Shown here one piece after another: positions 3,646 to 46,546 of a stretch of 64,000 nucleotides of DNA; the stretch's first letter is position 1, and the number at the start of each line of letters is the position of its first letter. Position numbers and translations under genes: made by a program. Under the pieces are notes generated by a model. That model ran no database searches. It saw only the letters and a list, made by a program, of their open reading frames with translations, and was not told the DNA's origin. The stretch covers positions 32,001 through 96,000 of the IMG/VR virus record IMGVR_UViG_3300006802_000073. The stretch is one strand, 5' to 3'. This stretch comes from a virus.

Positions 3646-3876
3646 TTAAAAATTTTCTTCTCCAATCCATGCATAGGTTTCTTCAAAAATACTTTTCTCA
3701 CATGAATAAAATTCACCCCTCACACCTTTAATCAAATAATCACCCGCAGAACCTTTCATTAAACCCTCTAGAGTATTTACAACAAAATCTTCACTCATTT
3801 GTACTGCATGAACTACAATCGGTTTCTTTCTACAGGGTTTCATAGTTTCAATAAAATCATTATTAATCACTCTCAT
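3646..3876 (-). CDS. Conserved phage protein
   Basis: RKKPIVVHAVQ...TLEGLM...GDYLIKGVRGEFYSC motif, common in phages. Confidence 0.65.
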   Translation of the reverse strand: MRVINNDFIETMKPCRKKPIVVHAVQMSEDFVVNTLEGLMKGSAGDYLIKGVRGEFYSCEKSIFEETYAWIGEENF

Positions 3877-4649: not shown

Positions 4650-5941
4650 TTAATGTTTTCCGATGAATCAGCCACTGTTTTATCTTCCCGAATCTCTAGA
4701 AACACAGGAAGAAACAATGACTCTGGTCCGCCATTCTTATCCTGAATCCGAGCATTATATTTAATAGCTACGATTTTACCGACTACATTTTTACGCTTGA
4801 TTGAATCACGATCTGCATCAGTAAATCCAGTACCAACGGATACTCGAATCTTTCCATCTGCAGATTCTAGTACAAGATTACCTAGACGATTAGCATTCTT
4901 GCCGGTACCTTTTTCCCACTCTACGCACTTTAGATCGCACTCTAGTTCACCCTTAAATTTCACTTGATGCTTTGCACGTTTAGCTTCCCAAGGTGCATTT
5001 AGATCTTTAAGAATGATACCTTCTTCACCTCGCTCTAGGTAGGATTGAAAAATTTCTTGAGCTTCATCTAAAGAATTTACTTCATGTGAAGTAACAAGTC
5101 CAACTCGTGGAGTGAATTTTGCGTCTTTAAGAGCTAGATAAAACCGTTTTTTATAGGTAAAGGAAGATTTTTCTTTCTTAAAATCGTCTAAAGGAATAAT
5201 ATCCCAAAGTGTTGCACAAACCAACATGGCTTCTTTTTTGGAGATAGTACCTTTCACTGCTTTATTCAGAATACCATTACCAGTTTTACGATCAAGAATC
5301 CCTGCTGCATCTTTTACCAACAATTCACCATCATATACTACACCTTTACCCGCTTGCAACTGAAATAGTTGTAGAAAATCTTCCTCTAGTTCGCCAAGAA
5401 GATCGATGGGTTTACCATTACGTGAACGAAATTCTACTTTTCCGTCTTTGACGATTGCGTTAAAGCGCATGCCATCCAACTTGTGTTGGACAACGGCTGG
5501 GAATTTGATTTTATCAACTGCCTTCTGGTCGAATCCGGAAGCCAGCATAACTGGGTATTCTGGAATGAGATTCTTCCAAATCTTGTTTGCTGTTGCCTCT
5601 GATACTCCGCAGCGGAGATCTCGTTTAATGATTTTTTCAATGACACAAGCATCACTCTCCTTCAATGAACTAAGTACAAGTTGCAGATGTGAGATTGCAG
5701 CATTACCTGTCAACTCACGACTAGAAAATCGATTCAGCTCCGTCAAAGCCCAATTCAATGTCACGAGTGATTGAGAAGTATATTCCGGAATCTTCCGAAT
5801 ATAAAAATTAATCATCGGATTAAGAGCAAGAAAAAATACTTTCTTTAGATCAGCATCGTCACGATTCTTCCGTAGAATCGCCTCCTTCTCTAGACGAGAA
5901 GATGTTGCTGCAAGTGCTTCCAAAATATCATTGCAGTTCAT
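4646..5941 (-). CDS. 30: ATP-dependent DNA ligase (gp30)
   Basis: KLDGMR motif I, DGEL, EGIILK, OB-fold LFLPVF. Confidence 0.95.
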   Translation of the reverse strand: MNCNDILEALAATSSRLEKEAILRKNRDDADLKKVFFLALNPMINFYIRKIPEYTSQSLVTLNWALTELNRFSSRELTGNAAISHLQLVLSSLKESDACVIEKIIKRDLRCGVSEATANKIWKNLIPEYPVMLASGFDQKAVDKIKFPAVVQHKLDGMRFNAIVKDGKVEFRSRNGKPIDLLGELEEDFLQLFQLQAGKGVVYDGELLVKDAAGILDRKTGNGILNKAVKGTISKKEAMLVCATLWDIIPLDDFKKEKSSFTYKKRFYLALKDAKFTPRVGLVTSHEVNSLDEAQEIFQSYLERGEEGIILKDLNAPWEAKRAKHQVKFKGELECDLKCVEWEKGTGKNANRLGNLVLESADGKIRVSVGTGFTDADRDSIKRKNVVGKIVAIKYNARIQDKNGGPESLFLPVFLEIREDKTVADSSENIK

Positions 5942-6071
5942 TTAGAGCTTCCTTTTGATTGCGATATTTACGCTTATAAACTTTTTTGAGAGAAACTACT
6001 CGTTGCTTATACTTTCCACTTGTCAACAGTTCACGAGCATACGGATCTCGGAGTTTAAAAGTCTTAGCCAT
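5928..6071 (-). CDS. Small basic 47-aa protein, ArfA-like (not in ORF track)
   Basis: Manual translation MAKTFKLRDPYARELLTSGKYKQRVVSLKKVYKRKYRNQKEALNELQ. Confidence 0.5.
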   Translation of the reverse strand: MAKTFKLRDPYARELLTSGKYKQRVVSLKKVYKRKYRNQKEALNELQ

Positions 6072-44070: not shown

Positions 44071-44132
44071 AATGATCTCCTATAAATACAATTATAATAA
44101 AATAATTTGTTTATGTCAAGTGGAATTTATAT

Positions 44133-45119: not shown

Positions 45120-45152
45120 TGTCTAGCTCCTTGTCATCAACAGTATACCGTC

Positions 45153-45180
45153 ATTATACAGAAATCTAACTAAATGTCAA
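45153..45180 (-). promoter_or_regulatory. Sigma70-like early promoter
   Basis: TTGACA-16nt-TATAAT. Confidence 0.8.
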
Positions 45181-45189
45181 GCAGAATTT

Positions 45190-45315
45190 TTACCCAGACA
45201 CAGACCTAGACCTAGACCTAGACCTAGACCAAGACCCAGACACAGACCTAGACCCAGACCTAGACCTAGACTCAGACCTAGACCTAGAGTATTTTTGTAA
45301 TCTAGAACGAATCAT
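45190..45315 (-). CDS. 41-aa Ser-Arg dipeptide repeat peptide (not in ORF track)
   Basis: MIRSRLQKYSRSRSESRSRSGSRSVSGSWSRSRSRSRSVSG; ATGA overlap with the upstream gene. Confidence 0.6.
   Translation of the reverse strand: MIRSRLQKYSRSRSESRSRSGSRSVSGSWSRSRSRSRSVSG
45193..45288. repeat. Hexamer tandem repeat (CCTAGA)n with variants, 16 units
   Basis: Visible directly; AGA is invariant in every unit. Confidence 0.95.
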
Positions 45316-45575
45316 TTTAGAATACCAAAACTTTCAATAGTTGAAATTTGCACATACCAGTCATTGGGTAATTTTTGTGCATCTCTCCAATTCTTTTCAG
45401 AAAAAGAACCGGTTTCGTAAACGATTGCTGCATCTTCTAATAGAACACAAGAATCGTTCACACCTACGAGTTTGCCTGTGTAGATATAATTCATACAGAA
45501 TAATGTTACACGCTCACCCATTAGCTTAACAAGACCTTCGCCTGCAACTTCAGTCACATTTACAATCTTTTTCAT
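45312..45575 (-). CDS. Sm/LSm-like small beta-barrel protein
   Basis: L..LMGERVTL...YTGKLVGVNDSCVLLEDA resembles the Sm1 motif; WYVQISTIESF resembles Sm2. Confidence 0.55.
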   Translation of the reverse strand: MKKIVNVTEVAGEGLVKLMGERVTLFCMNYIYTGKLVGVNDSCVLLEDAAIVYETGSFSEKNWRDAQKLPNDWYVQISTIESFGILK

Positions 45576-45966
45576 AATATATCTCCTAAATTAATATCGA
45601 GTACCAAACCGCCTATTATAAGCAGAATAAAAATTAATAATAAAGTCCTCTACATCAGAGGTTTTTAGATCGGATGTATTGGTCATCCAATCCATTCTCC
45701 CCAAAAAGAATGCATAAGCTGACCTCGGTCCACCACCAGGACCATCATGTATAATCTGCAAATAATCCAGTGTCTGATCATCAAACTCAATCATTATTGA
45801 TTCTCCAATATATCGGCAGTATAATCACCGTAAAGATAACTCAAAGTTTTCCAGACTGAATCCTTGACAGAATTATATTCTCGATGATTAGTGTAGATCC
45901 ACTTGAAGAACGCATCGTCACCTCGTTCCTCTGCATACTTTTCTGCACGAATCAAAAAGTCCATTA

Positions 45967-46230: not shown

Positions 46231-46258
46231 ATTATACATGAATCTAACTAAATGTCAA
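46231..46258 (-). promoter_or_regulatory. Sigma70-like early promoter
   Basis: TTGACA-16nt-TATAAT. Confidence 0.8.
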
Positions 46259-46518: not shown

Positions 46519-46546
46519 ATTATACATGGATCTAACTATCTGTCAA
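46519..46546 (-). promoter_or_regulatory. Sigma70-like early promoter
   Basis: TTGACA-16nt-TATAAT. Confidence 0.8.

Follow-up and report, generated by a model that had tools for sequence, protein, structure and literature searches.

A small Sm-like protein gene and an adjoining Ser-X dipeptide-repeat microprotein gene in environmental phages

An overlapping gene pair at a hexamer repeat

We analyzed a stretch of 64,000 nucleotides (nt), hereafter the window, from the virus record IMGVR_UViG_3300006802_000073 (149 kb, 87% complete), which comes from an uncultured freshwater phage, and focused on a hexamer repeat that reads (CCTAGA)n on the plus strand and on the gene that precedes it on the minus strand. 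This upstream gene (45312–45575, minus strand, as are the other features of the locus given here) is an open reading frame (ORF) for a protein of 87 amino acids (aa) with no Pfam or PHROG assignment, termed Sm-like for its predicted fold, and a Shine-Dalgarno sequence read from the DNA, AGGAG (45583–45587), lies 7 nt 5′ of its ATG. Its TGA stop (45314–45312) overlaps the ATG (45315–45313) of a 41-aa ORF (45190–45315) in an ATGA stop/start overlap (45312–45315) that couples the two ORFs and sits within the heptamer AAAATGA. The second ORF, the microprotein gene, is made up of a nonrepeat leader of nine codons (45289–45315), the hexamer array (TCT-NGG)16 that encodes the repeat (45193–45288), and a TAA stop. 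An original prediction for this stretch had read the repeat as an ORF of 16 dipeptides, Ser followed by a variable residue X, and had placed its start codon across the stop of the Sm-like gene; both readings proved correct.

Codon counts likewise agreed with the predicted pattern, in which Ser is always TCT and variation falls in the X codon, mostly Arg with Gly, Val, Trp and Glu variants: TCT is used throughout the window's array, and the X codons, which vary chiefly at their first base, are AGG (Arg) nine times, GGG (Gly) three times, GTG (Val) twice, and TGG (Trp) and GAG (Glu) once each. Tandem Repeats Finder described the array as a 6-nt unit in 14.5 copies (45202–45288, score 125; a period-18 description scores 145), and the strongest other tandem repeat in the window scored no more than 57. 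The array occurs a single time in the 149-kb record.

Conservation and architecture of the microprotein

A homologue of the Sm-like protein is encoded on 94 viral contigs, 80 of which were fetched for comparison. The locus comparisons below concern 81 related viral loci (82 sequences with the window) together with an independent set of 14 contigs binned into metagenome-assembled genomes (MAGs), and the peptide statistics concern 76 distinct Ser-X peptides, or arrays, from 73 loci. A hexamer-periodicity score above 0.55 was found within ~800 nt downstream of the homologue in 78 of the 82 sequences, and two of the four sequences under this value come from contigs that end too early to be scored. 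On translation, one frame of the repeat always reads as Ser-X behind a short nonrepeat leader. In a scripted search, 73 of the 81 viral loci yielded a Ser-X ORF that begins with a start codon, and such an ORF was found in 12 of the 14 MAG-binned contigs; the original prediction had named the absence of downstream dipeptide-repeat ORFs from homologues as a finding that would refute it, and it withstood this check. The eight loci without a Ser-X ORF comprise four that are cut by contig ends, one (L030) that has collapsed to two repeat units, and two or three that have none. At L030 (L030:3261-3310) the peptide gene is reduced to its leader and two Ser-X units, 13 codons, which indicates that arrays can contract nearly to nothing.

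Family members share an architecture in which a short basic leader, about M-x-R-x-x-K-Q-K-Y/W-R, precedes (Ser-[Gly/Arg/Trp])n. Peptide alignment gave a leader consensus of M-x-R-[GS]-x-K-Q-K-[YW]-R-S in frame with the repeat, a K-[QN]-[KR]-[YWFC] motif occurs 4–7 residues from the Met in 36 of the 76 unique peptides, and the window's own leader is a divergent form of the family type M-x-R-[GS]-x-K-Q-K-[YW]-R. Complete peptides range from 23 to 91 aa (median 63.5) and in net charge from +2 to +17 (median +11). Across the ~1,845 X positions of the 76 arrays, Gly occurs 650 times (35%), Arg 498 times (27%) and Trp 495 times (27%). The window's peptide, with a single Trp and with Arg at 9 of its 16 X positions, is an Arg-rich outlier in its family; the earlier description of the repeat as an Arg-Ser repeat is thus apt for the window and fails for the family at large.

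The start codon of the peptide overlaps the upstream stop as ATGA or GTGA in 35 of the 73 loci, and in nine more the junction is of TAATG or GTGATG type, with the start 2 nt past the first base of the stop. Most of the remaining starts lie within ~25 nt of the upstream stop, and five loci have a Shine-Dalgarno sequence of AGGAG or AGGGG type. These junctions suggest that the Ser-X gene is usually translationally coupled to the Sm-like gene. A profile search with the peptide alignment produced at least 11 matches, all unnamed, at a sensitivity limited by the low complexity of the peptide.

Coding status and selection

An open Ser-X frame, found in all 76 arrays, was the criterion for selecting them, and the other five frames are themselves open in 41 to 71 of the 76. 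Because several frames stay open across a repeat of this kind, the open frame in the window is by itself weak evidence, and the case for coding comes from comparison; the original argument that the intact frame points to selection on the peptide holds for the selection, which the comparative data support, and is weak where it relies on the window's frame. The Ser codons across the arrays are TCG (761), TCT (627), AGC (174) and TCA (165), homogeneous within arrays and differing between lineages, and six lineages (seven arrays) use AGC or AGT for Ser almost throughout. Since Ser is kept by way of both of its codon families, what is conserved is the amino acid and not the GGTC/AGACC DNA motif, and a DNA-level role of that motif was ruled out by the same six lineages.

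The codon TAG, a single step from both TGG and AGG, was found at none of the X positions, against ~20 occurrences expected from the abundance of TGG, while the equivalent second-base changes do appear (AAG 19, CAG 4, GAG 27). The leader varies synonymously (AAA/AAG 18:18, TAT/TAC 13:8), the ORF stop falls within a few codons of the array end, and Ser-X ORFs span 80% or more of the length in 85 of the 94 periodic tracts. Other frames were considered and rejected: the +1 frame, which encodes Gly-Arg, Gly-Leu, Gly-Ala or Gly-His/Gln according to lineage, has no start codon or conserved flank in the inspected loci, and the openness of the antisense frames is a trivial consequence of composition. 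From these comparisons we conclude that the repeat is in all likelihood a real protein-coding small gene under protein-level selection, and that the peptide appears to be selected for its composition and patterning and not for an exact sequence or length. We hold it to be highly probable that the microprotein gene is genuine and that its function is linked to the Sm-like gene.

Evolution of the array

Variation within arrays concentrates at the first base of X, with an entropy of 1.56 bits against 0.25–0.42 bits at the other five positions of the hexamer, and X is an NGG codon in 1,590 cases, against 53 synonymous non-G-ending Gly/Arg codons. Such a bias is what would be seen if the act of translation, or the repeat as DNA or RNA, were what matters, be it that a run of rare NGG codons tunes the expression or stability of the Sm-like mRNA, that the Sm-like protein binds RNA that is structured or G-rich, or that proteins bind the array as DNA. 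This explanation also has on its side that GG recurs every 6 nt in all arrays, AGC-type included, and that the sense RNA of TCT-type arrays folds better than shuffled sequence (z = −3.6). The folding scores are, however, inconsistent between array types (TCG +2.25, TCA +4.5, AGC −0.6), Rfam yielded no family and only chance matches to microRNA precursors far under gathering scores, and a DNA or RNA element would need neither Ser in two codon families nor a leader conserved as protein. An RNA hairpin formed by the GGUC quasi-palindrome with G-U pairs was dismissed as a general explanation because the sign of the z-score differs between array types.

The bias itself can be accounted for at the protein level. 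Within arrays the third base of X (0.25 bits) varies about as little as the synonymous third base of Ser (0.29 bits), an equality that fits rapid concerted evolution by slippage, and between lineages G is the only third base on which X can settle, TGG being the sole codon for Trp, so that access to Trp is all that needs to be kept. NGG is also unique among codon boxes in that changes at its first base yield Arg, Arg, Gly and Trp. Given slippage, the single Trp codon and the NGG box, no nucleotide-level constraint is needed, and we regard a nucleic-acid role of the repeat as quite improbable.

The fractions of X residues (W 0.27, R 0.27, G 0.35) are those of loci that span 32% to 69% G+C, and adjacent W-W pairs are depleted (82 observed, 127 expected). 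Where two loci share an identical Sm-like gene, their peptides differ in length in 5 of the 11 informative pairs, a difference to which errors of repeat assembly may contribute. The public contigs compared with the window's locus all stop at the repeat (45189–45292) and none bridges the array; among the 81 related contigs, 12 end within 200 nt of the Sm-like stop.

Fold of the Sm-like protein

An AlphaFold2 model of the 87-aa protein, computed from a 47-sequence alignment, reached a predicted local distance difference test (pLDDT) of 89 and a predicted template modeling score (pTM) of 0.77. It has a helix at residues 14–17 followed by strands at 22–27, 31–39, 43–54, 65–68, 73–76 and 80–84, in keeping with the N-terminal helix and the strongly bent five-stranded antiparallel β-sheet (an SH3-like barrel) by which the Sm/LSm fold is recognized. 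All of the 30 best PDB matches found by Foldseek and VIA-align are Sm, LSm, Hfq-like or other LSm-domain proteins, the top ones including SmAP1, SmF and Lsm1-7 (Z up to 9.8, root-mean-square deviation 1.6–4.2 Å over 63–73 residues). The model thus upholds the earlier assignment of an Sm/LSm-type fold, which we accept for this protein as predicted.

At the level of sequence the family stands apart. The protein matched no Pfam family at E ≤ 1, including PF01423 LSM, Hfq and PF23874 Phage_Hfq; the family profile matched no PDB sequence at E ≤ 10; and an Atlas feature search scored LSM at 0.84 and Phage_Hfq at 0.80, both under its reliable range. Homologues are numerous, at 3,690 (E ≤ 1e–3) in a protein collection clustered at 90%, and at 50% identity they form 488 clusters. 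The 46 closest of them have a mean column identity of 68%, with 27 invariant columns that include two Cys and the C-terminal Lys, and the net charge is always acidic (−1 to −7 in 82 homologues).

Two natural proteins, P0148 and P0158, carry two Sm-like domains in tandem, an arrangement that hints at association of subunits and that might be expected if they pack side by side, and by analogy with known Sm-fold proteins the Sm-like protein probably forms an oligomeric ring. At a locus of this tandem type (L112:1501-2085), Ser-X peptide genes were observed ~165 nt downstream.

Frame relation of the two genes

The overlap in the window raises the question whether the two genes are expressed as one product. 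The window's junction, CTA-AAA-TGA, would let tRNA-Lys shift its pairing to the −1 frame, in which the peptide's ATG comes next, and the original prediction had pointed out that a −1 slip would fuse the two; the main product would then be an Sm domain with a C-terminal Ser-X tail. One in-frame fusion protein does exist, P0287 (L111:35-1167), which consists of an Sm-like domain, a leader and a short Ser-X tail and arises because the A-run of the usual AAATGA junction is one A longer; it is the only fusion among the 150 representatives listed of the 488 clusters. (The next gene after this fusion encodes an RlmN/Cfr-like radical S-adenosylmethionine (SAM) RNA methyltransferase.) The frame of the peptide relative to the upstream stop, however, is not conserved, being 2 in 53 loci, 0 in 13 and 1 in 7, and the slippery form AAAATGA, with an A before AAA, is found at only 7 of the 35 overlap junctions. 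At least five loci provide the peptide gene with the separate Shine-Dalgarno sequence mentioned above and a spacer. The 12 longer homologues all owe their length to N-terminal read-through, each ending at the usual C-terminal Lys with no C-terminal fusion. Of the 150 representatives listed, most consist of the domain alone, which stops no more than a few residues from the C-terminus. Slippage at the A-run as the source of the main product is accordingly very hard to credit, and we treat the peptide as a separate polypeptide.

Genomic context and the charge of the two products

In the window, a perfect σ70 consensus promoter (46231–46258, minus strand; TTGACA, 16 nt, TATAAT; 12/12 match) precedes five small ORFs in a row, the last two of them being the Sm-like and microprotein genes, and no other σ70 match as strong lies between it and the Sm-like gene; this promoter probably drives a five-ORF unit of which the module is the end. 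The next perfect consensus promoter (45153–45180, minus strand; 12/12 match) begins 10 nt past the microprotein stop codon and marks the 3′ boundary of the module. Four perfect 12/12 promoters occur on the minus strand within 2.5 kb (44091–44119 and 46519–46546 besides these two), each preceding a short run of small ORFs, a layout typical of a strong early region. The stretch 45120–45184 around one of them has counterparts, at ~7 mismatches, in several further contigs from the same samples. At 45647–45661, in the 3′ part of a 67-aa ORF just upstream of the Sm-like gene, a small hairpin rich in GC has a T-run after it on either strand; it may act as a weak terminator in both directions or have arisen by chance.

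Neighboring genes were surveyed within ±3 kb of the 81 Sm-like loci. ORF clustering over this span found no other neighbor gene common to more than six loci, and the gene pair therefore seems to travel as a unit through otherwise unrelated genomes. Neighbors that could be named were DNA polymerase, primase-helicase, deoxycytidylate (dCMP) deaminase (1.7 kb from the module in the window), a PurZ-like enzyme, resolvase, replication initiator, DNA methyltransferase, a Lar-like protein, an RNA-binding protein and ferredoxin. They belong to a replication, nucleotide-metabolism and host-takeover module, and the setting is early or replication-associated. From its layout we would describe the module as a self-contained two-gene phage unit, with host-type promoters, of the early, replication and nucleotide-metabolism region. 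Elsewhere in the window's record, outside the window, lies a 279-aa QueE-like radical SAM gene (G000:C1:118768-119607, also L106:1393-2232), which suggests 7-deazaguanine modification of this phage's DNA.

The two products carry opposite charges, the Sm-like protein being acidic in every homologue and the peptide strongly basic. An acidic upstream gene overlapping a basic downstream gene is also a toxin-antitoxin-like layout, and the peptide might be a cationic, Trp/Arg-rich, membrane-active or toxic product (for host shut-off, phage exclusion or lysis) that the acidic Sm-like protein neutralizes. The Ser-X peptides, rich in Arg and Trp and with charges of +2 to +17, resemble the Arg/Trp antimicrobial peptides in composition, and the presence of the module in unrelated genomic contexts is reminiscent of an accessory cassette. 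Against this, the peptide lacks both a signal sequence and a hydrophobic segment and Ser makes up half of it, the neighbors are those of replication and nucleotide metabolism and not of lysis (the exception being GenBank record MW202825.1, with a lysozyme gene ~1 kb off on the opposite strand), and the conservation of the Sm-like protein among its closest homologues would be unusual for an antitoxin. Neither protein matched a toxin, antitoxin or defense family in PHROGs, NCBIfam, PADLOC or Pfam, PHROGs giving only a partial match (0.039). We judge a toxic peptide to be improbable.

Ser-X peptides outside the module

Ser-X peptides are also found at four loci without a nearby Sm-like gene (L104, L105, L108 and L109), of which the last three indicate that the peptide family is broader than the module. 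L105 (211-960), on a 1-kb contig with no Sm-like gene, has two tandem genes in which a long Ser-X repeat is joined to an N-terminal domain of ~50 aa that belongs to no known family.

L104, to which the peptide-profile search led and which comes from a 21.5-kb Joint Genome Institute (JGI) metagenome contig, is of another kind. At least six tandem Ser-X peptide genes, 1–2 nt apart, are followed there (L104:1-2493) by a gene for a 340-aa radical SAM enzyme, an 89-aa ORF and a MORN-like 106-aa ORF; the peptides are 56–66 aa long, with Trp, Arg, Gly, Lys, Phe or Tyr at X and with a conserved leader and C-terminal tail. In NCBIfam the enzyme best matches MoaA, and then the peptide-modifying SPASM/twitch enzymes PqqE, AlbA, PapB, SkfB and ScmF. 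L104 looks like a candidate cluster for a ribosomally synthesized, post-translationally modified peptide (RiPP), and it raises the most serious rival to a nucleic-acid function of the module: the Ser-X peptide would be a RiPP precursor whose W-S-R, W-S-G and W-S-W triplets are cross-linked by an enzyme such as a W-x-R/K-type radical-SAM cyclophane synthase, and the Sm-like protein would be a small precursor-binding chaperone. Among known radical SAM enzymes are some that form cross-links between Trp and Arg or Lys within repeated motifs of three residues, and one of them needs a chaperone of ~100 aa, WprC (PMC11851443). A leader followed by repeated triplets of the three types is present family-wide, a motif that does not by itself make the peptide a substrate, and tandem peptide genes, two to four at each of the loci L001, L018, L027, L080 and L083, resemble precursor arrays.

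Yet no homologue of the L104 enzyme was found within the surveyed span of the 81 loci, where three ORFs bear a CxxxCxxC motif, and the only radical SAM gene in the window's record is the QueE-like one, 42 kb away. All matches of the L104 enzyme are far under the curated NCBIfam cut-offs, no Sm-like gene was detected in the 3.6 kb of L104 examined, and the window's peptide offers a single Trp. That the module's peptide is a RiPP precursor seems to us unlikely; that a new RiPP pathway encoded by phages acts on the Ser-X peptide family stands as a possibility alternative to the condensate proposal that follows.

Proposed function

For the module we propose a nucleic-acid mechanism. The peptide would be an intrinsically disordered polycation in which the side chains of Arg and Trp, set apart from one another by Ser and Gly, allow multivalent binding of low specificity to RNA or single-stranded DNA. 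An acidic Sm-like oligomer would bind the peptide and hold, neutralize or load it, and the two together would chaperone, protect, sequester or condense RNA early in infection or takeover. The peptide would in this way supply in trans what in eukaryotic Sm/LSm proteins is a basic low-complexity tail. We advance this combination of a polycation and an acidic Sm-like oligomer tentatively, as the likeliest of the readings considered yet somewhat short of an even chance.

A more specific form of the proposal is that phages of very different lineages (32–69% G+C) have a minimal ribonucleoprotein or condensate system, made of an Sm-like ring and a free 'sticker-and-spacer' (Ser-[Gly/Arg/Trp])n microprotein whose length and pattern evolve by repeat slippage on the timescale of strains. 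This is speculative, and we would sooner bet against it than for it in its full detail. By analogy, the same system may be the counterpart, in viruses of prokaryotes, of the Sm plus RG/RGG-tail principle of eukaryotic RNA granules, capturing or protecting RNA during host takeover, a parallel that we put forward with the same reserve.

Several points weigh against the nucleic-acid proposal. The 87-aa protein has no sequence similarity to Sm, Hfq, Phage_Hfq or the T4 proteins GoF and MotB.1, so that RNA binding is predicted from the fold, and small β-barrels serve many other uses. A net-acidic protein is unexpected for an RNA binder. The Ser-X peptides found away from Sm-like genes imply that the peptide may have a function of its own. 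None of the RNA sequencing runs that were searched contains the locus. Array lengths and some sequence details are uncertain, as short-read assemblies break or may collapse at the repeat, and the fusion protein P0287 comes from a single 1.4-kb contig and could be a sequencing error. A modeled complex of four Sm-like copies with the peptide, both entered as alignments, scored 0.02 against a mark of 0.32, which weighs neither way.

Should the nucleic-acid mechanism prove true, phages pair a compositionally selected disordered polycation with an Sm-fold protein, which would be a new class of early host-takeover factor and a minimal, tractable system for the study of Arg/Trp 'sticker' patterning in nucleic-acid binding or condensation; should the peptide instead be a RiPP precursor, the arrays represent a new family of phage-encoded modified peptides. 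Under either reading a single nucleotide per hexamer bears nearly all of the variation, because the NGG box maps first-base changes to Arg, Gly and Trp.

Relation to known systems

The module, common in environmental phages, is an overlooked gene class. A peptide gene so short and low in complexity is apt to be passed over by gene callers and annotators, its repeat interrupts short-read assemblies, and tryptic proteomics would probably cut the peptide into undetectably short fragments. Among 50,697 GenBank phage records, no isolated phage encodes the Sm-like protein, and the only record that does is metagenome-derived (MW202825.1, a 34-kb 'complete' genome). In that record the Sm-like gene and the first peptide ORF are unannotated (L001:2737-3384, at about 5395–6040), at least two tandem Ser-X ORFs each start at an ATGA overlap with the previous stop, and an annotated 60-aa hypothetical coding sequence covers part of the second. 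Typical peptide strings of 6–7 residues occur nowhere in the full text of 8.4 million papers, and literature searches for related concepts found no description of the module. The module lies outside any described kind of phage system, although the fold of its first gene is well known.

Small early phage proteins with an LSm-like barrel have been described in T4 (GoF, MotB.1, Frd.2), where, according to PMC12152347, their function is unknown or concerns mRNA stability. The Sm-like protein shares with them its small size, its barrel and a gene position among early genes. It differs in being a single 87-aa domain, the T4 proteins having an extra C-terminal domain, and hhalign of the family alignment gave no sequence relationship to GoF (0.4% probability) or MotB.1 (0.1%). 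No repeat-peptide gene is present next to goF or motB.1 in the deposited T4 annotation, and none is mentioned in the available part of PMC12152347.

The WprA/WprB/WprC and WgkA/B systems (PMC11851443) resemble the module in their short ribosomal peptides with a leader and repeated Trp-x-Arg/Lys motifs and in an accessory protein of ~100 aa, and L104 resembles them further in that its Ser-X array adjoins a radical SAM enzyme of SPASM/twitch type. The Sm-like modules, in contrast, show no maturase related to the L104 enzyme within ±3 kb, their Ser-X repeats are far more numerous (up to ~40 dipeptides) and hypervariable, and their accessory protein has an Sm fold.

Eukaryotic SR proteins recall the window's peptide in its alternation of Ser and Arg, yet the latter is a free-standing phage peptide, as are its relatives of 23–91 aa, with no RNA recognition motif (RRM) or other Pfam domain and no kinase implicated, in a family where Arg takes little more than a quarter of the X positions.

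Among eukaryotic Sm and LSm proteins, SmD1, SmD3 and SmB carry RG repeats and LSm4 an RGG tail. In the phage module the repeat is a separate polypeptide and is Ser-[Gly/Arg/Trp], with Trp as frequent as Arg, and the Sm-like protein is acidic, lacks a Pfam LSM or Hfq sequence match, and is predicted, by its fold, to form a ring and to bind RNA. What the module shares with the eukaryotic and archaeal Sm/LSm proteins is the same five-stranded bent β-barrel with a short N-terminal helix (Z 9.8) and the company of a basic, Gly/Arg-containing dipeptide-repeat element with an Sm domain.

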